The notes: generated by a model from the sequence alone, not told the origin. A DNA stretch of 32,000 nt from Patescibacteria group bacterium (GCA_041649575.1 JBAZMW010000003.1:159559-191558), one strand, 5' to 3'. Counted from the first letter of the stretch, positions 3,739 to 32,000 are shown. Made by a program: numbers and translations.

Positions 3739-6700
3739 TTAAGCTGTCACTACCTTATCTTGTAAAGGCCGAACCGCCTCTATTACTTTTTTCAAGACAG
3801 CGGCGGGATTTTTACCGGCATAAGGAGCCGAGCGGCTGACCGCCTCGCCAGTGCCCCCCTGATGGCTGGCTTCCATCACCAGTTCGGCGGGGTTGATTCG
3901 GACATCGATATTACTCTCTGCCAAAGTAAACTGCAGGACACCTTTGGTCACCTTGGCCGCCGAGGCCTGGCCAGTTATACCGGCCTCAGAAAGAATCTTG
4001 GCAACTTCTTTGCTGGGAGCGGTGCCGGCTTCAACCAGTCTAGTTAACTTAACCCAGCTTTCAAGGTTTGGAGAGTTTAAGACTTCAGTACCGCTAATTA
4101 GCTTGCCAACCGCCGAGTCGGGAGCGACTTCTCCGCCAGCAAAAGTCAGAACCTTTTTGGCCAAATCGGCGCCATGACTTTCTACCAAACCGTTAAGCGT
4201 CTCGCCAGGAACAACTTTGGGGTTCCCGCTATAGAAACTAACCACTTCTTTGGCCACACCCTTGACTCCCGATGATAAAATTTCGGCCGCTCGGCCTGGT
4301 TCAAGTCCGGCCTCATGCGCCTGACCCATCAGGTCGTAGGCGGACTGATCTAAACTGACACCAGAACCTTTGACCAAGCCGACTACCTGACGCAAATAAG
4401 CATTATTAGACTCTATTTGCGATAGAGTTTTCTCGCTTAGCTTGCCGGCGGCCTGTAAAACCTTTCCTGTATCACCGGTTTTCGGATCAAAAAAGGTGCT
4501 GGCCACTAATTCATTAAACTTATCATTACCGGCTAGTTTGGCCAGATCTTCAGGAGTGACATGATCGATATTAGCCGGTAAACCAAACTCGGTTGGACTT
4601 TTGGCAACCGCGTCTTTGATGGAATCAACCAAATAGGTAATCTTGCCTTCACGAAAGACAGGTAGCTTTTTGAGAGCTTCCGAAGTCATTTTACTAATAT
4701 CTACATCCTTCGGCAGTCCAAGTTCGGCGGGATAGGTCTGGCCGCTTTCTATGGCCTTTTTGACTGTTGATCCGAGCGCTGCTTCGCATTTCTTTTCGAT
4801 AACTCCCCAGACAGTATGCGAACCTTTAGCCTCAACTCCTTCGACGACTTCCAGCGCTTGCTCAAATTCAGTCAATTTTTCCGGCGCTTCCGGCCCAGGC
4901 GCGGTTTCCGTCGTGGCAGATTCTGCTGGCGCGGCACCTGGGGTATGTTCTGTTGGCGCACCGCCCGAAGCGGCTTCTGGCGCACCGGCGTCCGGCACTC
5001 GCGGAGCTCCTTCTGCTGGTGGGTTGCTCCCTTCAACTGTTGGTTGCTCTGCCGGCGCGGCGCCAGGAGTATGTTCTGCTGACGCTCCACCAGGAGCGGC
5101 TTCTGGCGCACCGGCGTCTAGAACTCGCTGAGCTCCTTCTGCTGGTGGCTGGCCTTCCGGCGAAACGCCGGCATGAGGGGCTTCCGCACCGCTTCCGCCG
5201 CTTCCGGCTTCAGCGGCGCCAGTGGCCGCGCCATGACCACGGAGCCATTGCCAAGGCTGAATACCGACAACCAGGCCAGCGGCGGCGGCTATCACGCCGC
5301 GTTGTATTTCTTTTCTTCTTTCAGCTCGGCCGGTTTGCTCTTCAGCTTGATGGGAAGTGCTAATATAAAAATCCAATTGATTAGACAAGGCATCGGCCAA
5401 AGAATAGCCGCTGGTATCAATGGCAGTCAATCTCTCCTCCATTCTAGCCAAACTGGCTTGATACATTTGATCAATAACCGGCTTCATTCTATCGCCAAAA
5501 ACATCTACTTGACGCTTGCCTTTTCTTTCGGCCAAGGCCGTTATTCTGGCCAACTCTTCCTTTAAATCCTTATCGCTTAAACTTCCAAACTTTTTTTCTA
5601 ACCAAGCTTTGGCAGCTTTAGGATCTTTCCTTTTCTCTTTAGCGTATTCTTTATAAATCTTCTGGGCTAATCCTTTATCTCCAAAACGTTTAGTAAATCT
5701 TTCCAGAGCGGCGTCAACACCCATGGCGGTACCGGTACCGCCAAGTATTCTTCTGGCAAAAAAGACAGCGGTCAGCAACGGCGCCGAAGCGGCGAAAGAA
5801 GTGGCAACGGCCGGAGTGGCCAAAGCCACAGCGGCTCCCAACAAAGCGCCGGAAACAATCAGTCTGCCAGTGGCATGACGTTGCCACCATCCTTTAAGTC
5901 TTTCTCCTCTGCTTTTTTCCTTACCTTCAAACTCGGCCCAGACTAGTTGGTTTTCCTTATCATACAAATCAACCAGTCCCTGAGCTAGACGATCTGGAAA
6001 CATGGCCAGAGGACTAAGTTCACCGGTCTGTACTTTGGATCGGATCGACTCTTGCAAAGTCGCTTCATAAGAACGCCTTAACTGCTCTAACTTCTGCTCG
6101 CCCTTCTTGCCGCGGAATTCGGATTTGCCAATAAGTTTCATCCTCTCTCGCCTGGCTTGATAATAGGCCTTGCGGGCTTGATCTAGGGTTGGTTTGTCTT
6201 CTTCAGTCTCAATTATTATAGGTCCTTCACCAGTTTTATCTGATGGAGGAAAAGGAGCGGCATCATCTTCCTCTTCATGAGACTTTAGTGTCGATTCTTC
6301 CGATTCATCTTCTAATTCATCTTCCGGCTTCTTTCCTGATTCCTCAAGCTCACGCACAAGACGTTCAGCCTCAGCTAGATCAAGAGGTGCTGACTCTGAC
6401 TCTAATGGAGGCGCTATTAATTCCACATCAAGAACCGACTCAATCCAAGTCGCGTATGCCTTATTATCGACAAAATTAAAGGTACGTATATAGGGTTTTT
6501 CTCCCTCTTCCACTAAACCAAGAAATTTTTCTTCATAGGTCGCTGATAAATAAGTGACTCTTATCATGCTCCCTGGCTTAATACCCCTAAATTTTTCCAA
6601 AAGTCTTTCTGTTCTTTCGGCCGGACTTTCCTCTGGCAACGGTGAAGGTCTTTCTGCTTCTTCGTCTGGATTTTCACCCGACTCCGGAGCTGGCGGCGGT

Positions 6701-9585
6701 GGAGGAGGGAGAACTTCCCCAGATAAATCCCCAAGCGGTGCTTCTGAATCATCTGGCCGCATCACTTCAACGCTCTCTATTCTATTGGTATTTTCTTGCC
6801 TGCCATCTTCAAAAAGCAACAGCATCCCGGCTGTGGTATCCACCAATCCCCTGAAGTCTCCGATAAAACTCGATCCGTCCGTACAGACCCCTGCTAGTTT
6901 ATCGCCAGGCTTACAACCGCGAAGTACTGCAAGTACTCTTTCTATTCTTTCTTTATCTTTTTTATCTTTATCTTCGGCGTCAGACTCTACCGGCGCAGGC
7001 CTAGGCGTTTCAACCGCCTCACTGGTCGCCGTCACCCTAGCTCTAACAATCTCGCCACCCGGCTTAGTAAAACCCATAGTAACAACCGCAGCAACTTTTA
7101 GATTACGGCCCTTGGGACCTTCAGTAAATGTAACCTCATGATACTTCTCATTAATATTATCGCCCAGCTGAACTAGCCAAAGTCTAAAACCAAAACTTTG
7201 CATTAACCCTGATAAATATCCGACTTTTGCGGTTTCAAAAACGGGACCATTAACCGCATCACAATATTCTCTGCCAATTTCATCTACCAAAACTTGCACC
7301 GCGTGCTCTCTGCTTTCTGTTTCTATTTTGTCTTGTAATCCTCTAGCGCCAGCAGCTAGCTGTCTCATCCCCAAGGCTTCTGCTCTGCTAAGAATTGCTG
7401 AGAGCATGGCTTGCAGCTCTTGCTGTTCCGCGCTAAGCTCTGCTTCTGCTTTTTCGTCTCCTTTTGGTGTTTCTGGCGCCGGCTGTTCGATGGCCGGTGC
7501 TAACACCTCAATCTTTGTTATTAAAGAAAGAAGGATCTTTTTTGGCTTTAAGTCACTTGGTTTGCCTTTGATCTTTACGCGGTCACCTTCCACTCCATCA
7601 AAAAAGCCCTCTTCTTTCATTCCGCCCAAATCTACCAAAATCCTAGTGCCAAGCGGCAAATCTTTTAATTGATCGGCTGTTACTTCCCGTCCTGACTGCT
7701 TAGCGCCTAACCGCTCGGCTACCTCATTCATTATTTGCAAAGCACATTCCCGAACCAAACCTCTGGCGGTTTCTTCTTCGGCGCTTTCTTTTTTGGGCCG
7801 ATAACGAGCCTCTTGGCCGGCTGCGTTTGCAGCTGTTCTAAAAAGAGTATTTTCTAAAGCAACCAAATCTTTAGGAAGAACTTTTTCTTCCTGCTCTGTC
7901 ATGTTCTGGATGATTCTTTGTTTTGTTTCCTCTAAAGCCTTTTTGAAAGCAGGCAAAAATTTAGTCTCAGATTCACCACTTCCTTCTCCTTTTAATTCTT
8001 GATCTTTCGAGCCATTCACTTCGGCCATAATTTGCTCCGCGCACGCGCTAACCAGATTTAGAACAGCCGGCTCCTCGGCATGCTTCCAGCCTTTTGTCGC
8101 CCTGATAGTTTTGTCGAGAATCGACTTTTCTAATTTATCTTTTTCTTCCGGCTTAATCCTTCTTCTCTCACTCTTCATTCTTTTGACTATCTCCTCTCGC
8201 GTCTGGTCTAATGCCTCTTTAAAAGCTTCCAAGAATGCCTCAAACTCATTTTTTTCCTCCCCCTTTCTGATAATTTCAGTGTCAATGCTTTCGCCAACCT
8301 CGCACTGGGCATTACCCTGTAATAGAATACGACAATTTTTGGCTTTTCTAATAGCCAGCTTAGCGCCATCCTCAACGACAAATCTGCTATCTGTCGCACT
8401 CTCGACTTCCATGGATATCCCGGCTCCGATCTTTTCTCTGCGCCTGTCGTTCATCTCTCTTCTTCTTACTGTTTTGAGCCCCGATCCTGGCTTTTCTTCT
8501 ATAGATCCGCCATTCTTCCCGGTGGTATCAAGCTCGGCTTCAATTTGTTCAGCGAAATTTTGGGATGCTTGGCGCACCAGGTCTTTTTCGGCTGCCGACT
8601 GCGCCTCCAAGCCGGTTTCTTTTTGGACGTCACGCTCAACTGTCCCAAAAAATATAGTTTTTTGCATATCATTGGCTTCTTGCGCATCATCAGCGCCAGC
8701 TCTAATTATGGTTATAAATTCTTGCCTTCTTCCATTTAAAACCCTCTCAAAAACAGGCAAAAACCTGTCTCTAAATTCCGGTCTGATTTCTGGCGACTCG
8801 GCCGCTGGAGCCCCTCCTTTTATTTCTCCTTTAAACGCGGCATGGGTTTCACGCAGCCCCTCTAATTCAGCTACAACTGCTTCTAACTCTTTATATAAAG
8901 GATTAAATTCATCTCTTAAAGCTTCTATATCTTCACCTATACTCTCTAAAGCCTGCACACTAAAAACCTTATTTATTAAAAAACCCAAAAAACGTTCAAT
9001 TATTTCAATCTCCTGATTAATGATTTTTTGAGCCCACTCCGGCTTGGCCTCTACCTTGGCCCTGACACTCGATAAAATAGTTTTGCCTTCAACTATGCCT
9101 GATCTCTCTTTGGCCGCGTTAACTTCTGCTCTAATTTGATCAAGAGCAATTTCGGCTTCTGCCGTCTCGGCCGGTGGCGGCGGGATTTCAACGCCAACTA
9201 CGGGGAGATGTAATCCTAAAACTGATCTGGCATTATCAATAACCCACCGAGCATTTGCCTTGTTGATTACTCCACCACGCCCTTCTTTCTTGAAAGTGTC
9301 AGACATATCCAAAATGTGCTCCAGTCCGGCTAAGAGCTCATCTAATTCCGGCGCCTGCAGGTCGGACAAATCGGACAAAGCATTAAAAGAATCTACAGCA
9401 GCCCTGAATTCTTCTACTTCTGGTTCCTTTCTTCCTGAAAGATTAGTCTTTATTCTCAAAAGAGCCCTATTTATTCTTTTTCTTTTTTCCTTGTTCTCTT
9501 TTCTCTCGGCCTCTGTTGCCTCTCCTTCGGCTCCGGGCTCAAGCTCGTCTTCTTTGTCTGGAGTTTTTGGTTTATAATCTCCCAT
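3739..9585 (-). CDS. giant (1948 aa) acidic coiled-coil / membrane-spanning protein of unknown function
   Basis: Single uninterrupted ORF. The N-terminal ~1150 aa are Glu/Lys-rich helical repeats plus three small beta-domain repeats. A hydrophobic TM pair (LIVSGALLGAAVALATPAVATSFAASAPLLTAVFFA) and a later TM (GVIAAAAGLVVGI) follow. After that comes a Pro/Ala/Gly-rich tandem repeat and a ~500-aa C-terminal domain. Confidence 0.8.
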   Translation of the reverse strand: MGDYKPKTPDKEDELEPGAEGEATEAERKENKEKRKRINRALLRIKTNLSGRKEPEVEEFRAAVDSFNALSDLSDLQAPELDELLAGLEHILDMSDTFKKEGRGGVINKANARWVIDNARSVLGLHLPVVGVEIPPPPAETAEAEIALDQIRAEVNAAKERSGIVEGKTILSSVRAKVEAKPEWAQKIINQEIEIIERFLGFLINKVFSVQALESIGEDIEALRDEFNPLYKELEAVVAELEGLRETHAAFKGEIKGGAPAAESPEIRPEFRDRFLPVFERVLNGRRQEFITIIRAGADDAQEANDMQKTIFFGTVERDVQKETGLEAQSAAEKDLVRQASQNFAEQIEAELDTTGKNGGSIEEKPGSGLKTVRRREMNDRRREKIGAGISMEVESATDSRFVVEDGAKLAIRKAKNCRILLQGNAQCEVGESIDTEIIRKGEEKNEFEAFLEAFKEALDQTREEIVKRMKSERRRIKPEEKDKLEKSILDKTIRATKGWKHAEEPAVLNLVSACAEQIMAEVNGSKDQELKGEGSGESETKFLPAFKKALEETKQRIIQNMTEQEEKVLPKDLVALENTLFRTAANAAGQEARYRPKKESAEEETARGLVRECALQIMNEVAERLGAKQSGREVTADQLKDLPLGTRILVDLGGMKEEGFFDGVEGDRVKIKGKPSDLKPKKILLSLITKIEVLAPAIEQPAPETPKGDEKAEAELSAEQQELQAMLSAILSRAEALGMRQLAAGARGLQDKIETESREHAVQVLVDEIGREYCDAVNGPVFETAKVGYLSGLMQSFGFRLWLVQLGDNINEKYHEVTFTEGPKGRNLKVAAVVTMGFTKPGGEIVRARVTATSEAVETPRPAPVESDAEDKDKKDKERIERVLAVLRGCKPGDKLAGVCTDGSSFIGDFRGLVDTTAGMLLLFEDGRQENTNRIESVEVMRPDDSEAPLGDLSGEVLPPPPPPAPESGENPDEEAERPSPLPEESPAERTERLLEKFRGIKPGSMIRVTYLSATYEEKFLGLVEEGEKPYIRTFNFVDNKAYATWIESVLDVELIAPPLESESAPLDLAEAERLVRELEESGKKPEDELEDESEESTLKSHEEEDDAAPFPPSDKTGEGPIIIETEEDKPTLDQARKAYYQARRERMKLIGKSEFRGKKGEQKLEQLRRSYEATLQESIRSKVQTGELSPLAMFPDRLAQGLVDLYDKENQLVWAEFEGKEKSRGERLKGWWQRHATGRLIVSGALLGAAVALATPAVATSFAASAPLLTAVFFARRILGGTGTAMGVDAALERFTKRFGDKGLAQKIYKEYAKEKRKDPKAAKAWLEKKFGSLSDKDLKEELARITALAERKGKRQVDVFGDRMKPVIDQMYQASLARMEERLTAIDTSGYSLADALSNQLDFYISTSHQAEEQTGRAERRKEIQRGVIAAAAGLVVGIQPWQWLRGHGAATGAAEAGSGGSGAEAPHAGVSPEGQPPAEGAQRVLDAGAPEAAPGGASAEHTPGAAPAEQPTVEGSNPPAEGAPRVPDAGAPEAASGGAPTEHTPGAAPAESATTETAPGPEAPEKLTEFEQALEVVEGVEAKGSHTVWGVIEKKCEAALGSTVKKAIESGQTYPAELGLPKDVDISKMTSEALKKLPVFREGKITYLVDSIKDAVAKSPTEFGLPANIDHVTPEDLAKLAGNDKFNELVASTFFDPKTGDTGKVLQAAGKLSEKTLSQIESNNAYLRQVVGLVKGSGVSLDQSAYDLMGQAHEAGLEPGRAAEILSSGVKGVAKEVVSFYSGNPKVVPGETLNGLVESHGADLAKKVLTFAGGEVAPDSAVGKLISGTEVLNSPNLESWVKLTRLVEAGTAPSKEVAKILSEAGITGQASAAKVTKGVLQFTLAESNIDVRINPAELVMEASHQGGTGEAVSRSAPYAGKNPAAVLKKVIEAVRPLQDKVVTA
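4923..5148 (-). repeat. 2 x 126-bp in-frame tandem repeat inside the giant gene
   Basis: 100-nt cores at 4923-5022 and 5049-5148 align with few mismatches. They encode PPAEGA(Q/P)RV(L/P)DAGAPEAA(P/S)GGA..EHTPGAAPAE twice. Confidence 0.8.
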
Positions 9586-27807: not shown

Positions 27808-28995
27808 TTGCCGATTTACGGCCGCTACCTCTGGCTAAAAACCAAGCTGGCAAAAAAAACCAACCGCGCCAGCGAAAAAATAATTTTGGTTTTTACCAAT
27901 CGCTATATCATTCATCTACTGGTGCTGGCCATCGGTTTGTTAGTAGTGGGCGTTAATGTTTTGGCCTATGAGACACGCGAGGATTACGGCAAGAACGCCT
28001 TGATTTATAAAATAGTGGGGCTGGAAGACACCTATTTCACCGAAGACACCAGCGGTTCGCAAGAAGAATCTGTGGTTTATAGTTATTTGGAAAAAAACTC
28101 CCAGTTGCAAAGCGAGCCGGCCAGCGCCAACACTGCAGAAACAGATGACGAAATCGACCAATCAGCTTTTGAATTGACACAGGGAGGAGCGGCCCTGGTC
28201 AAACCGGAATTGGCCAGCACCGAAGAAGCCAAAATTGGCGTTAAGGGGCTTAGAAACTACAAAGTGGCGGAGGGCGACACCATCAGCAGTATCGCCGGCA
28301 AATTCGATATTTCCGTTAACACCGTTCTTTGGGCCAATAACTTATCCTTGAATTCTTACATTAAGCCAGGCCAGCAGCTGATTATCCCGCCGGTAAGCGG
28401 CGTAGTCCACACCGTCAAAAAAGGAGACACCCTGGCCAAGATAGCCCAAAGCTATAAAGGCGAATTGGCCCGGATAAAAGATTTCAATAATTTGGATGAT
28501 GAGACCGCTTTAATCGCCGGCGAAAAAATAATCGTGCCGGGCGGAATAATTGTTACCGCCAGAACACCGGCTTACACCCAGGTGGTCACCACCAGAACCG
28601 CCAGTCCGTCAACAATCAATGTGCCTGTCAGCGGCAAAATGGCCTGGCCCAACTCTTGCTACCGTATCACCCAATACTACAAAGGCTGGCGCCATGCGGG
28701 CGTGGATATCGCCTGTCCCTGGGGGGTGGCCATACGAGCGGCCCAGGCCGGCAAAGTCATCAGAGTTCAATATGGCCGAACCGGCTACGGCTATAATATT
28801 ATCATCGACCATGGCGGCGGCAAACAGACCCTCTATGGCCATTTGAGCCGAATCGACGTGGAAGTCGGAGAGTGGGTGGAAAAAGGAGAAGCCATTGCCG
28901 CCGAAGGTTCGACCGGCCGTTCCTCCGGACCGCATTTACATTTTGAGGTGCGCGTTGGCGGCTCGACGGTTAATCCTTTGAGTTATATCAGATAG
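27808..28995 (+). CDS. LysM-domain M23 family peptidoglycan endopeptidase
   Basis: N-terminal TM helix, two LysM repeats (YKVAEGDTISSIAGKF..., HTVKKGDTLAKIAQSY...), and the M23 motifs HAGVDIA and GPHLHFEV. The TTG start is uncertain. Confidence 0.85.
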   Translation: MPIYGRYLWLKTKLAKKTNRASEKIILVFTNRYIIHLLVLAIGLLVVGVNVLAYETREDYGKNALIYKIVGLEDTYFTEDTSGSQEESVVYSYLEKNSQLQSEPASANTAETDDEIDQSAFELTQGGAALVKPELASTEEAKIGVKGLRNYKVAEGDTISSIAGKFDISVNTVLWANNLSLNSYIKPGQQLIIPPVSGVVHTVKKGDTLAKIAQSYKGELARIKDFNNLDDETALIAGEKIIVPGGIIVTARTPAYTQVVTTRTASPSTINVPVSGKMAWPNSCYRITQYYKGWRHAGVDIACPWGVAIRAAQAGKVIRVQYGRTGYGYNIIIDHGGGKQTLYGHLSRIDVEVGEWVEKGEAIAAEGSTGRSSGPHLHFEVRVGGSTVNPLSYIR

Positions 28996-30066
28996 ACAAT
29001 TTGTAATCCTCTGCCTAATCTTATAGCTATTCCCGTGTTTTAACAGTCCTAAATAGGAATTAACGGTTTCTGCTTTAGGATTGTTTTTTATTCTCTTGAA
29101 CATTCTCCGTTTGGCTTTAGCGCGCAGAACGCGGTGATCAAAGAAATGCACCCAGCCCAAGGAATCAAGGCCGGAATTTAGCGTTTTGATAAAAATCTTG
29201 TCGGGATGAAGCGTCAGTTTTAATTTATTTAATAAAAAACCAGCTATTAGTTTAATGATGTTTTCTAAATATCCCCTGTTTTCTGAAAATACAACAAAGT
29301 CATCACAATAACGCAGATAATGTTTTATCTTCAACTGCTGTTTGATAAATTGGTCAAATTCATTTAAATAAATATTAACTAAAAGCTGGGAAGTGAGATT
29401 GCCAAGTGGCAAACCCAGCTCTCCCCCTTTCCAAGGGGGAGTCAGAGGGGGTTTTGAAGATTCTAATAAGACAGAGGATTTCATAACCTCCCCTCGCCCC
29501 TCCTTGGAAAGGAGGGGGAAAGAAATAAAGCTGTCAATTATTTCTTCCAATAGATTTAATATTTTTTGGTCATTGATTTGCCTAGCCAAAATGTCCTTTA
29601 AAATCCAGTGACCAACGCTGGCAAAAAATTTCTTAATATCGCCTTTCAATATCCAGCAGGTTCGGCTGTTGTTCTGGCTAACCTGGTAAGCAAACTTTCT
29701 AAATCTGTTTAAGGCTTTGTGGGTGCCCTTATTAAGTCGGCAGGAATGGGAATCGGCAATGAATTTTCTGTCGAAATATGGATAGAGCTGACGATAGACG
29801 GCGTGATGGACCAGGCGATCGCGCACACTGGCCTTGTGGATGTTTCTGGGCTTGGGATCGCAGATGTTAAACGACTTATAACCGCCATGACGATAATTGC
29901 CATTTGCCAAATCGTGATGAAGGGCGATAAGATTGTCCATGAGACTGAATTCAAATCGCTGGACATCGGCTTTCTGCCTTTTGCCTCGCCGAAATTCCTG
30001 CCAAGCTAAAAGCAAGTTATCTAAAGAAATAATATCTTCAAAAGTATGAGTGAAAACTTTGGCCAT
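28936..30066 (-). CDS. diversity-generating retroelement (DGR) reverse transcriptase
   Basis: RT motifs present: RNIHKASVRDRLVHHAV, GDIKKFFASVGH, LPLGNLTSQLLVNIYLNEFD (the DGR-diagnostic [I/L]GxxxSQ) and YLRYCDDFVVF. No maturase or endonuclease domain. TR, VR and avd lie adjacent. Confidence 0.9.
   Translation of the reverse strand: MAKVFTHTFEDIISLDNLLLAWQEFRRGKRQKADVQRFEFSLMDNLIALHHDLANGNYRHGGYKSFNICDPKPRNIHKASVRDRLVHHAVYRQLYPYFDRKFIADSHSCRLNKGTHKALNRFRKFAYQVSQNNSRTCWILKGDIKKFFASVGHWILKDILARQINDQKILNLLEEIIDSFISFPLLSKEGRGEVMKSSVLLESSKPPLTPPWKGGELGLPLGNLTSQLLVNIYLNEFDQFIKQQLKIKHYLRYCDDFVVFSENRGYLENIIKLIAGFLLNKLKLTLHPDKIFIKTLNSGLDSLGWVHFFDHRVLRAKAKRRMFKRIKNNPKAETVNSYLGLLKHGNSYKIRQRITNCLSDITQRINRRAANAHLKM
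29421..29517. repeat. palindromic (MITE/RPE-like) element inserted in-frame in the RT gene
   Basis: Terminal perfect hairpins CTCCCCCTT-tcc-AAGGGGGAG (29421-29441) and CCCCTCCTT-gga-AAGGAGGGG (29497-29517) are related to each other as inverted repeats. The region encodes FPLLSKEGRGEVMKSSVLLESSKPPLTPPWKGGEL between RT motifs 3 and 4. Confidence 0.6.
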
Positions 30067-30090
30067 CTTAATAAAAATTCTTTTAGGTCA

Positions 30091-30105
30091 CCCCCCCCCC
30101 CCCCC
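30091..30105. repeat. C15 homopolymer in the divergent RT / avd intergenic region
   Basis: 15 consecutive C counted directly. It lies 25 nt from the RT ATG (30066) and 8 nt before the avd TTG (30114). Confidence 0.9.
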
Positions 30106-30113
30106 GCTACAAT

Positions 30114-30485
30114 TTGGAAATTTTGCATAAAACACAAACGCTTTATAGGCTCTGGCATGACTGGCTAAAAGATTTTCCCAAGTTGTCGCGCTATACGCTA
30201 GGAATCAGGGTTGATAATTTATTTATCGAACTGCTTGAAAATCTTTTTGCGGCCAGCTACTTGCCTCGACAAGAAAAATCACCCCTGATTAAAATCATCA
30301 TCAAAAAAATAGATTTGTTAAAATTTTTGATTTGGCTAAGCTGGGAGCTAAGGCTGCTTAGCGACAACAAATATCAGAATCTTTCGCTGCCGCTGGAAGA
30401 AATCGGACGCTCGGCCTGGAACTGGGGAAACCGTTTAGAAAAAACGCCGCCGCTCTGGGCGGAGGCGCAAAAACAAAACGGCTAG
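30114..30485 (+). CDS. avd: Avd-like accessory variability determinant (four-helix-bundle protein)
   Basis: FPKLSRYTLGIRVDNLFIELLENLFAA and LLKFLIWLSWELRLLS...LEEIGRSAWNW parallel the helices of Bordetella-phage Avd (IPRKHGVAREMF..., LRFWLRFL...AEVGRILGSW), from memory. The TTG start is uncertain. The gene is on the strand opposite to RT and TR. Confidence 0.75.
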   Translation: MEILHKTQTLYRLWHDWLKDFPKLSRYTLGIRVDNLFIELLENLFAASYLPRQEKSPLIKIIIKKIDLLKFLIWLSWELRLLSDNKYQNLSLPLEEIGRSAWNWGNRLEKTPPLWAEAQKQNG

Positions 30486-30589
30486 CGGACGACGGCGAAC
30501 CGACAGATGTGGTTCCAATCGTTCTTGGTGTGGTTGACGTACAGGTTGCGCTTAGCATCGTTCCTGTTGAGGTACAGCACCCTGTCGCC
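30485..30589 (-). repeat. DGR template repeat (TR)
   Basis: 105 bp homologous to both VRs. Read on the minus strand it encodes GDRVLYLNRNDAKRNLYVNHTKNDWNHICRFAVVR with 6 AAC codons and 27 adenines. Its last 23 nt (TCTGTCGGTTCGCCGTCGTCCGC) contain no adenine and are identical in the TR and both VRs. Confidence 0.9.
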
Positions 30590-30874
30590 ATCTGTAATGT
30601 GCCGCTGGCCATCAGAACCACTGCCAATTGAACCGCCCAAAAGGCGTCTCTTGGCTGTATCTTGTTTGGGATTTTTACCCTGTCAAATAACATTTTAGAC
30701 CATCGCTTGTGTTTTATCATCCAAAAACCAAAGACATGGCTACAATTTTCTGTTGATATATTTAACGGGGTTTAATCCGCCAGCAAACGGCACCGAGCAG
30801 TTTTTGTTTTTATTTTTGGTATTCCTAAGCCGGTGGCCGAGGAAATATTAACCATATTTATCTTAAATAAATTT

Positions 30875-30932
30875 GAGAAAAAAGAAAAGGTCCGCTCAGC
30901 CAGCTCAAGAATCTGAGCTGGCTGAGCGGACC
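30875..30932 (-). terminator. 19-bp perfect hairpin plus T-run downstream of target gene 1
   Basis: GGTCCGCTCAGCCAGCTCA-agaatc-TGAGCTGGCTGAGCGGACC, followed on the minus strand by TTTTCTTTTTTCTC. Confidence 0.75.
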
Positions 30933-30977
30933 GGGGTCAAGGTCCAAGGGATTGTTGGGGTCAACTGCCCGTCTTGC

Positions 30978-31568
30978 CTACGCTTGCGCTTCGGCAATTC
31001 GGTCAGGCTCGCGGACGACGGCGAACCGACAGACGTGGCGCCAACCGCCCTTGGTGAGGCGGACGTACAGGCCGCGCCCTGCACCGTCCCTGCTGAGGTA
31101 CAGCACCCTGCCACCGGTGGGAGCCGCGACAATCGGGAACTGCCGCTGCAGGTCGGGCTGCTTGGCACCCAGAGTCAATGTTTCGCGGGGCGTGGCTCGG
31201 CGGTAACCGCGCTTCTTGGCTTCGGCCGTGGCATCGTCATCGGAAATGTCGTAGCCCAAGTGTAGCAGTTCAACCACGACTGTTTCCTTCTTGTCTTCGG
31301 TGGGCAGGGGGACGTTGGCTTCGGTGAAGTCGCCGTCAACCCAGTAGCAGGCGATGGCCTCGCGCAACTGCTCACGGGTGAACGAGTGGTCGATGTCGAG
31401 GGCAACCGCGCTCCTCAAACGTTGGCCGACTGCCGCGATTTCTCTGCCGATCACTTCGAGCAAATAGGCGTCCTGACTCACGAACCGAATGTCGCTGGCC
31501 TCACCGCCTTGCGCTACCACTGCTTCGGTGATCACTTGCGCGAGAACTTCAGGATTAATGGTGTTCAT
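30978..31568 (-). CDS. DGR variable (target) protein 1
   Basis: 196 aa, with AAGGAGG 6 nt before the ATG. VR1 occupies the C-terminal ~45 aa. No signal peptide or TM helix is visible. A hand-counted 60-nt line is 72% GC. Confidence 0.85.
   Translation of the reverse strand: MNTINPEVLAQVITEAVVAQGGEASDIRFVSQDAYLLEVIGREIAAVGQRLRSAVALDIDHSFTREQLREAIACYWVDGDFTEANVPLPTEDKKETVVVELLHLGYDISDDDATAEAKKRGYRRATPRETLTLGAKQPDLQRQFPIVAAPTGGRVLYLSRDGAGRGLYVRLTKGGWRHVCRFAVVREPDRIAEAQA
31011..31115 (-). repeat. DGR variable repeat VR1
   Basis: Ungapped alignment to the TR at offset +526. There are 19 mismatches, 17 of them at TR adenines (minus-strand sense). Encodes GGRVLYLSRDGAGRGLYVRLTKGGWRHVCRFAVVR. Confidence 0.9.
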
Positions 31569-31596
31569 TGTTGTTCCTCCTTAATGGTCAGGGTTC

Positions 31597-31648
31597 ACCC
31601 CGTGGAATCCCGACTTCGTCGGGACCGCTTCGCGGTATTCCACGGGGT
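31597..31648. repeat. perfect three-way-junction element (copy 2), between the two DGR target genes
   Basis: Outer stem (A)CCCCGTGGAAT / ATTCCACGGGG(T) directly encloses CCCGAC-ttc-GTCGGG and ACCGC-ttc-GCGGT. Same architecture as 11474-11524, with a compensatory A:T to G:C change in the outer stem. Confidence 0.7.
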
Positions 31649-31656
31649 ACATGGTT

Positions 31657-32000
31657 TCAGGGTTTCAACTGCTCGCGGACGACGGCGAACCGACAGAGGA
31701 GGTTCCAATCGATCTTGGGGTGGATGACGAACAGGTGGCGCCGAGCATCGCCCCTGCTGAGGCACAGCACCCTGCCGCCGGTGGGGGCTGCGATGATCGG
31801 GAACTGCCGTTGCAGGTCCGGGTATTTGGCGCCCAGAGTGAGCACTTCGCGAGGCGTGGCCCGACGATAGCCGCGCTTCTTGGCTTCGGCCGTGGCATCG
31901 TCATCGGAAATGTCGTAGCCCAAGTGTAGCAGTTCAACCACGACTGTTTCCTTCTTGTCTTCGGTGGGCAGGGGGACGTTGGCTTCGGTGAAGCCGCCGC
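31657..32000 (-). CDS. DGR variable (target) protein 2, 5' end beyond the right edge
   Basis: Paralog of target 1. The frame stays open to base 32000 (...GGFTEANVPLPTEDKKETVVVELLHLGYD...), so the track start at 31941 is an artefact. VR2 lies at the C-terminus. Confidence 0.85.
   Translation of the reverse strand, partial: GGFTEANVPLPTEDKKETVVVELLHLGYDISDDDATAEAKKRGYRRATPREVLTLGAKYPDLQRQFPIIAAPTGGRVLCLSRGDARRHLFVIHPKIDWNLLCRFAVVREQLKP
31675..31779 (-). repeat. DGR variable repeat VR2
   Basis: Ungapped alignment to the TR at offset +1190. There are 14 mismatches, all at TR adenines. Encodes GGRVLCLSRGDARRHLFVIHPKIDWNLLCRFAVVR. Confidence 0.9.

Follow-up and report, generated by a model that had tools for sequence, protein, structure and literature searches.

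Diversity-generating retroelements (DGRs) are known to be enriched in the candidate phyla radiation (CPR). In the survey of Wu et al. 2018 (PMC5758913), 90% of the CPR set had the architecture B3, in which the template repeat (TR), the accessory gene and the reverse transcriptase (RT) gene are arranged as TR-(avd)-RT; two targets were present in 13% of DGRs, and most CPR variable repeats (VRs) were unclassified ('UVR1-6' or ungrouped). Roux et al. 2021 (PMC8144416) described a CPR-restricted DGR clade (clade 2) with targets that lack recognisable domains, and predicted a C-type-lectin-like fold for unannotated CPR targets. Here we analysed a stretch of 32,000 nt (the window; GCA_041649575.1, JBAZMW010000003.1:159559-191558) that comes from a metagenome-assembled genome (MAG) of Patescibacteria (CPR). 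Positions 28936-32000 had been predicted, from the sequence alone, to hold a complete DGR with two tandem target genes.

We conclude that the locus is very probably a genuine chromosomal DGR of the CPR type, with adenine-specific rewriting of the C-terminal ends of at least two small lectin-like proteins. The DGR call of the original prediction was upheld: we found a DGR-type RT, a probable Avd homologue, adenine-specific TR/VR pairs, and VRs that end two paralogous genes. The layout is targets - TR - (avd reversed) - RT. An Avd-like gene had been named among the parts and is present; it lies, however, on the plus strand, opposite to the RT, the TR and the targets, all of which are on the minus strand. 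The locus is complete in that all element types are represented, but target 2 is cut off at the end of the window, which is approximately the contig end. Target 1 is identical to the MAG protein WC518_03280. The core features are as follows.

28936-30066, minus strand: DGR reverse transcriptase of 376 amino acids (aa), with LGNLTSQ (motif 4), YCDD (motif 5) and matches in Pfam, PHROG and PDB
29423-29515, minus strand: palindromic in-frame RT insertion of ~36 aa (PLLSKEGRGEV...PPWKGGELG), an inverted repeat directly before motif 4
30091-30105, minus strand: G15 homopolymer (C15 on the avd strand), within the 47 nt between the divergently oriented avd and RT starts
30114-30485, plus strand: Avd-like accessory gene, 123 aa (NF033474, PF22296, PHROG 3206)
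30485-30589, minus strand: TR of 105 nt (repeat scan and recount); its last 23 nt (30485-30507) are free of adenine and resemble an initiation of mutagenic homing site (IMH*-like)
30978-31568, minus strand: target gene 1, 196 aa, with a three-helix N-terminal region and a predicted C-terminal C-type-lectin-like domain; VR1 at 31011-31115
31657-32000, minus strand: target gene 2 (P0004, annotated 'partial'), C-terminal 113 aa; VR2 at 31675-31779; the 5' part of the gene is cut off by the window and contig end

With B3-type CPR DGRs the locus shares the host phylum, an avd reversed between TR and RT, a C-terminal VR, more than one target, and targets in which no domain, signal peptide or transmembrane helix is recognisable. 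Nothing essential sets it apart; the window adds the RT insertion, an enlarged loop (P2) in the RNA before the TR, and the long G15 run. It is a typical member of the documented CPR DGRs, as gene content, gene order, host, number of targets and lack of target annotation are all as published. The locus itself thus adds little, and its interest is modest; that of the family-wide RNA and G-run features is greater.

With the DGR of Bordetella BPP-1 (mtd-avd-TR-brt), the locus has in common the RT family and its active-site residues, Avd, adenine-specific TR-to-VR transfer, a GC-rich IMH-like end and a hairpin by the VR. Unlike in BPP-1, avd is on the opposite strand, the TR is not inside an avd-TR-brt operon transcript, and there is a G-run between avd and RT. 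The CPR element has a cellular host instead of a phage, and a small protein instead of a tail-fibre protein as its target.

Template and variable repeats

A repeat finder reported a direct repeat in three copies (30477-30589, 31003-31115 and 31667-31779) and a 300-nt duplication with 87% identity (31007-31306 and 31671-31970) that spans the 3' halves of two minus-strand open reading frames (ORFs). We recounted the TR/VR differences in the minus-strand sense over 30485-30589. VR1 differed from the TR at 19 positions, 17 of them TR adenines, and VR2 at 14 positions, which were TR adenines without exception (14/14). The enrichment of mismatches on adenine was highly significant for both copies (one-sided Fisher test, p=7e-11 for VR1 and p=2e-10 for VR2). 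The TR contains 27 adenines, and 22 of these were changed in at least one VR. These are exactly the numbers given in the original prediction, which had placed 31 of 33 mismatches on TR adenines. A comparison of the two VRs gave 20 differences, 18 of them at TR-adenine positions, so each copy was rewritten separately, as had been proposed.

The adenine-free end of the TR, described before as invariant, was identical in all three copies and encodes CRFAVVR. Directly after it, the TR has TAG and both VRs have GAG (a single T/G difference at 30484), and the homology extends 4 nt further beyond this difference. Read in the VR frame, the TR terminates in this TAG and sits within a non-coding RNA, and the VRs lie within coding targets: VR1 encodes residues 152-186 of the 196-aa target, and VR2 the equivalent part of the paralog. 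The placement of the VRs at the C-termini of paralogous minus-strand genes was likewise borne out; outside the VR, the two paralogs are 89.5% identical (20 of 191 positions differ). Hairpins lie downstream of both VRs, and the TR is followed by a hairpin, too.

30967-31008, minus strand: imperfect hairpin ~3 nt after the VR1 IMH (DNA fold, z=-2.0)
31598-31647, minus strand: branched GC-rich hairpin with two GAA-loop arms, between targets 2 and 1 and ~24 nt after the VR2 IMH (-25.5 kcal/mol, z=-5.9)

The same MAG contains three further fragments of the target family at contig ends (P0019, P0041 and P0042), so the number of targets served by the element is probably three or more. A third VR is found in P0019, a C-terminal fragment; the changes in this VR relative to the TR-encoded peptide fit adenine mutagenesis except for one Trp-to-Cys replacement. 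P0041 and P0042 are two distinct N-termini fused to a shared middle region. The assembly breaks fall in the shared 3' halves of the targets.

A genome scan with the target-family profile returned 80 loci, nearly all in CPR MAGs. RT and Avd are encoded just downstream in 22 of these, invariably in the order target(+), ~300-400 nt, TR, avd(-), RT(+). Among 21 related loci, 375 of 419 TR/VR mismatches fell on a template adenine. One locus with two tandem targets (L005) had 23/28 and 15/17 of its mismatches on adenine, and a perfect 11-bp hairpin follows both its VRs at the same place as the VR1 hairpin of the window. L079 and L089, which come from different MAGs, are nearly identical, with 26 differences over 2.7 kb. 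The VR accounts for 23 of these differences, 21 of them at TR adenines; the remaining three are the length of the G-run and two changes elsewhere. Such a concentration at TR adenines in the VR indicates that this type of DGR is active in nature.

The RT matched Pfam RVT_1 (E=5e-18) and PHROG 1423 (reverse transcriptase; E=3.5e-106), and the motifs LGNLTSQ and YCDD that had been noticed from the sequence both lie in the ORF 28936-30066. Its best PDB sequence match was 8ub7 (E=1.4e-34), followed by group II RTs (E=3.9e-19). From the numbering of F66, R74, I76, I181, G182 and Q187, 8ub7 was identified as the Bordetella DGR RT (bRT). The bRT residues in contact with template or dNTP are kept in the window RT (K29, F66, R74, I76, G182 and Q187), and I181 is replaced by Leu. 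The palindromic insertion, an inverted repeat with 36-nt arms at RT codons ~185-215, was found only in the window and in L028 (7754-7930, longer) among ~20 RTs of the clade; L005 and L025 have different, smaller insertions at the same spot.

The Avd-like ORF matched NF033474 DivGenRetAVD (E=5.6e-15), PF22296 bAvd (E=9e-10) and PHROG 3206 'Avd protein of DGR' (E=3.6e-14), and had no sequence match in PDB. Its assignment as an Avd homologue is also supported by synteny, as avd has the same position and orientation in each of the 22 related loci that bear an RT.

Structured RNA around the template

In the spacer that follows the TR of the Bordetella ribonucleoprotein, as seen by cryo-electron microscopy (Handa et al., bioRxiv 10.1101/2023.10.23.563531), the first element is an Avd-binding stem-loop. 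The next is a strand that base-pairs to the TR 3' end and contains the priming adenosine. Two nt on, a further strand forms the 'stop' duplex with the segment immediately 5' of the TR. There follow a short stem-loop, unpaired adenosines with a single-stranded 'thumb ring', and an RT-binding stem-loop. The RNA survey in that preprint took in the 40 nt before and the 100 nt after each TR, and the leader of CPR DGRs was therefore outside its view. No description of a TR-flanking leader RNA was found in the papers searched; Paul et al. 2017 (Nature Microbiology) is outside that search.

Alignment of the related loci revealed a shared plan between target and RT: a VR-adjacent hairpin, CTTGG-like 8-nt repeats, an intrinsic terminator, a -10-like box, a conserved start, a leader, the TR, a pyrimidine linker, and a GC hairpin with a U-run. 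The window contains the following elements.

30438-30468, minus strand: GC-rich stem-loop with U6, terminator-like and a candidate Avd-binding element (terminator scan and fold)
30469-30483, minus strand: 3' strand of helix P0 (AGCCGUUUUGUUUUU), pairing with the leader at 30796-30811 (covariation, 18 loci)
30595-30812, minus strand: structured 5' domain of the TR RNA, comprising the P0 5' strand, P1, P2, J2/3 and P3 (covariance model)
30796-30811, minus strand: P0 5' strand
30780-30794 with 30599-30609, minus strand: P1
30623-30655, minus strand: P3, with J2/3 (CAAACAAGAUACA) between P2 and P3
30822-30865, minus strand: putative TR-RNA promoter region, with a -10 box TAAGAT at 30860-30865, the start GGUUAAUA at 30853 and a leader hairpin at 30822-30845 (aligned intergenic regions)
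30878-30932, minus strand: intrinsic terminator of the target-gene transcript, with a 20-bp stem and a T-run (terminator scan)
30933-30950, minus strand: short CTTGG/CTTGA repeats between target 1 and the terminator, a weak copy of the array in relatives

RNAalifold, applied to the 120-150 nt before the TR of 18 loci, predicted a 12-bp long-range helix (P1) and the hairpins P2 and P3. The 24 pairs of P1-P3 were 95.4% paired across the 18 loci, compared with 35-48% when the strands were slid against each other; 21/24 showed compensatory changes, and none of 500 shuffles was as good. P0 joins the A-rich strand directly 5' of P1 to the linker directly 3' of the TR. In an alignment built from concatenated, ungapped segments, its 12 pairs were 84.7% paired (42-52% when slid), with compensatory changes in 11 and again 0/500 shuffles as good. 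The A-rich single strand between P2 and P3 is conserved as CGAAUAAGAUACA.

A covariance model of P1-P3, made from the 18 loci, was found in 30 loci, always between target and TR, including loci outside the training set. The window matched the full model at 30595-30812 with 62 bits (E=3e-14), versus 85-120 bits in relatives, and carries a 98-nt insertion in the P2 loop (30673-30770). Rfam 15 had no family for the TR RNA and returned only a sub-threshold SurC match on the terminator, and tRNAs elsewhere. The covariation indicates that the TR lies in a self-contained, strongly covarying RNA that is predicted to clamp both TR ends.

The conserved RNA start is GGAUAGUAGAC, with GGUUAAUA in the subgroup of the window. 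The -10 box and the start were read from the alignment, so the promoter is a putative one; in a sigma-70 promoter scan, matches were no more frequent than in shuffled sequence. At the place after the TR, we recognised a hairpin of differing sequence in ~17/18 related loci by visual reading. An automatic hairpin-plus-U test flagged 6/18, a low count because hairpins further downstream confounded the test. Since the end of the avd ORF coincides exactly with the TR boundary, the P0 3' strand and the terminal hairpin (30438-30485) have the last ~16 avd codons as their antisense. Convergent transcription could pair the avd mRNA with the TR RNA.

The predicted CPR RNA resembles that of BPP-1 in that one contiguous strand holds both TR flanks in two adjacent duplexes and continues into a stem-loop, a single strand and a second stem-loop, and in that another stem-loop stands right after the TR. 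In contrast to Bordetella, where the clamping strand is in the 3' spacer, it lies 5' of the TR in the CPR RNA, which apparently ends at the terminator-like hairpin. With its 'spacer' half 5' of the TR, the order of elements in the CPR RNA would be a circular permutation of the Bordetella order.

We propose the following sequence of events. The TR would be transcribed as its own non-coding RNA of ~415 nt, from a promoter just after the target terminator (~30853) to the hairpin and U-run at 30438-30468. P0 would form between the A-rich leader strand and the pyrimidine stretch that directly follows the TR, and P1 between the adjoining leader strand and the stretch that directly precedes the TR; with both flanks clamped in this manner, the TR would be a loop that emerges between two neighbouring duplexes. 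P0 and P1 would be followed by a small three-way domain made up of P2, the conserved single strand and P3. RT-Avd would prime the cDNA at the P0/P1 junction and copy the TR with errors opposite adenines. The cDNA would then replace VR1 or VR2, with homing guided by the adenine-free GC-rich end (RFAVVR codons) and the VR-adjacent hairpins. The resulting proteins would be small and cytoplasmic-looking; each would bind through a compact C-type-lectin-like domain whose last three strands carry the diversified residues. In this scheme we infer the transcription and termination of the TR RNA, its ends, the priming site, the roles of P2, J2/3, P3 and the terminal stem-loop, the homing guides and ligand binding.

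A more general model is one on which we are evenly divided. B3-type CPR DGRs would express the template as a discrete, terminator-ended non-coding RNA, whose 5' domain is a permuted form of the Bordetella 'spacer'. P0, as the analogue of the template:primer duplex, would position the priming nucleotide close to the conserved AUACUUGG junction; P1 would be the analogue of the stop duplex, followed by P2, the single strand and P3. The hypervariable G-run may in this model be an on/off or dosage switch that acts by slippage. If so, the comparative evidence would reach beyond the Bordetella model, suggest adjacent clamping of both template ends as a conserved principle of DGRs, and predict the CPR priming site.

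The P1-5'/P2/J2-3 module seems to have been duplicated in part, and in tandem, to give the insertion in the P2 loop (GGUCUAAAAUGUUA...GGGUAAAAAUCCCAAACAAGAUACAGCC). The sequence ACAUUACAGAU, directly in front of the TR, could take part in an alternative pairing of the P1 type.

In most related loci, CTTGG/CTTGA motifs show a 3- to 6-fold enrichment and are spaced ~8 nt apart. Between the target stop (or the VR hairpin) and the terminator, [CT]T[TC]G[AG] arrays reach up to 8 copies, compared with 1.4 expected, and are clearer than in the window in L064 (~6565-6640), L059, L056 and L005 (8620-8660). They may be a target-side mark for homing or a protein-binding array in the 3' untranslated region (UTR).

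Alternative explanations

Several observations weigh against an active DGR that works as proposed. Two Avd scores lie under their curated cut-offs (NF033474: 55.5 bits, cut-off 80; PF22296: 39.4 bits, cut-off 40). The fold of the whole TR-to-RT region (661 nt) was no more stable than that of shuffled sequence (z=-1.1). The transcript ends and the priming site are placed by element order and covariation only, and so is the presumed equivalence of RNA elements between CPR and Bordetella. The VRs of the window are identical in the two available assemblies of the locus. Two of the VR1 differences from the TR are not at adenines (C>T at 30587 and T>A at 30554). Finally, the RT insertion (~36 aa) and the 98-nt insertion in the P2 loop might impair function.

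The last of these points would also be expected if the locus were a genuine DGR that is now inactive in this genome, a fossil with fixed VRs and with the RT and TR-RNA insertions as signs of decay. The fixed VRs in two assemblies, the two non-adenine changes in VR1, the palindromic 36-aa insertion beside RT motif 4, shared only with L028, and the lowering of the covariance-model score by the P2-loop insertion are all in line with this view, as are related loci that have a TR and target with no RT or avd nearby (L007 and L044). However, all ORFs are intact, and YCDD and the dNTP/template contact residues are kept. The RT insertion is in frame and has been retained in a second lineage, and every RNA helix is preserved around the P2 insertion. 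Moreover, the same MAG has a third, differently diversified VR (P0019), and a sister DGR is demonstrably active (L079/L089). We therefore consider a fossil unlikely.

An RT of another class (group II intron, retron or defence RT) that is a neighbour by coincidence is much less probable still. The best NCBIfam match of the RT was indeed a group II intron RT/maturase (TIGR04416, 126.6 bits), with weaker matches to Drt2, Drt3 and retron RTs (retron model, 40.5 bits) behind it. Yet these scores are far below the cut-offs (300 for TIGR04416, 235 for the retron model), and no DGR RT model was among the NCBIfam matches of the window RT. In PDB, bRT ranked first by 15 orders of magnitude; the motif-4 GxxxSQ is present, and Rfam gave no match to an intron RNA domain or msr/msd.

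That the repeats are ordinary paralogous fragments, with the 'TR' as a pseudogene remnant diverged by point mutation or gene conversion and an unrelated RT nearby, is effectively refuted by the base-specific mismatch spectrum (31/33 differences at TR adenines with VR1 and VR2 disagreeing at the same sites, 375/419 in 21 loci), and also by a TR embedded in covarying RNA and by RT and avd syntenic in 22 loci, although the targets are multi-copy with further paralogs in the genome, and the two paralogs differ outside the VR as well. We thus return to a DGR of the CPR type as our reading of the locus.

Among the related loci, L007 8800-9045 (= L053) and L044 6784-7036 have the TR-RNA domain and a TR by the target, with no RT or avd within 6-8 kb. 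Their mismatches fall on adenine in 18/22 and 12/25 cases. These loci may be served in trans by an RT from elsewhere, or may be decayed DGRs.

Target proteins, G-run and neighbouring genes

Neither target, nor any of 40 family members, matched an entry in Pfam, NCBIfam or PHROG, and the profile of the family had no match among PDB sequences. Word-indexed searching yielded 6 relatives at first and 43 subsequently; every one with a source name was from Patescibacteria. An exhaustive profile search yielded 4,381 clusters at E<=1e-3 and 2,258 at E<=1e-10. Clustered at 50% identity, the family thus has a size of at least 4,381. Some members, of 320-490 aa, have two or three matched stretches (tandem domains). 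The locus L002 encodes a 247-aa protein with two tandem VR-type domains (P0003, 10001-10744), beside the rpsL-rpsG-fusA operon and with no RT within 10 kb.

AlphaFold2, run with a 40-sequence alignment, modelled the whole target with pLDDT 89.7 and pTM 0.77, and residues 53-190 with pLDDT 94.6 and pTM 0.88. In the model, three N-terminal helices precede an alpha/beta domain, of which the VR forms the last three strands and the intervening loop. Foldseek matches (PDB and BFVD) were nearly all C-type-lectin-like or link domains (BDCA2, NKp80, DCIR, LOX-1, aggrecan G1, TSG-6 and the C-terminal domain of Bd2740), with weak scores (E=0.03-0.8, probability <=0.97, TM 0.43-0.56). No known DGR variable protein was in the Foldseek top 50. 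The target scaffold had been described as not assignable to a classical fold. This is right as regards sequence annotation, but the confident models weakly resemble C-type-lectin-like domains, which makes a new scaffold unlikely. The target is, as modelled, probably a compact, divergent C-type-lectin-like domain.

The C-type-lectin (CLec) variable proteins of other DGRs (Mtd, TvpA, AvpA and TaqVP; Pfam types FGE-sulfatase and DUF1566) are similar to the targets in that the VR is on the C-terminal strands of an alpha/beta domain nearest to C-type-lectin-like domains. Unlike these proteins, the window targets match no Pfam or PDB entry, including FGE-sulfatase, DUF1566 and Lectin_C, and their domain is ~135 aa long. 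The helix start GYRxA...ELL and the final strand RFxxVR of the targets recall what we take to be the CLec motifs GxRLPT...EW and GFRxxR. A very large unannotated family (at least 4,381 clusters, here almost only from CPR MAGs) becomes readable as a compact lectin-like DGR target.

The targets have a GC content of 62-63%, compared with 47% for the rest of the window. In 73/77 related loci the target was richer in GC than its flanks (median +11.9 points), and the excess covers the whole C-terminal domain, not the VR alone.

The divergent starts of avd and RT are 27-77 nt apart across the loci. In 18/21 loci, a run of at least five G stands on the RT strand between the two starts (window, L005, L021, L023, L025, L028, L029, L037, L039, L043, L054-L056, L064, L068, L079, L083 and L089), with flanks that are otherwise unconserved. 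Its length is G10 in ten loci, G9 in three, G14, G8, G7 and G5 in one each, and G15 in the window. Two assemblies of the window locus have G15 and G11, respectively, and otherwise agree over 10,951 nt; in the sister pair L079/L089 the runs are 9 and 10 long. The G-run sits upstream of the RT's own Shine-Dalgarno-like sequence. Exact-pattern metagenome scans for the G-run flanks and for the VR/IMH end gave no match.

We considered a coding-frame switch via the C-run in avd. The frame is open through the run everywhere, but in at least seven loci there is a stop just upstream without a canonical start, and elsewhere the start is downstream of the run. This placement of stops and starts does not support a coding-frame switch, and a role in the promoter or 5'-UTR is more likely than one in the avd frame. 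Pairing of the G-run with the pyrimidine linker was not supported by the fold of the TR-to-RT region.

Phase-variable homopolymer tracts occur in divergent or overlapping promoters, for example at opc/porA in Neisseria and hifA-hifB in Haemophilus. The window is similar to these in having a long G/C run in a very short divergent intergenic region, with a length that varies between otherwise identical sequences. The length differences of the G-run could, however, be due to sequencing or assembly error at a long homopolymer. The pattern suggests that the G-run may be a slippage-prone control element for avd/RT expression, and it would thus be a candidate regulatory homopolymer for a hypermutation system.

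Elsewhere in the window, a 1,948-aa ORF (3739-9585, minus strand) had no Pfam match at E=1e-5 or better. The other genes of the window encode SmpB, IF3, Lgt, GroES/EL, pyruvate kinase and a LysM/M23 peptidase, indicating that the DGR resides on a cellular chromosome rather than in a phage.

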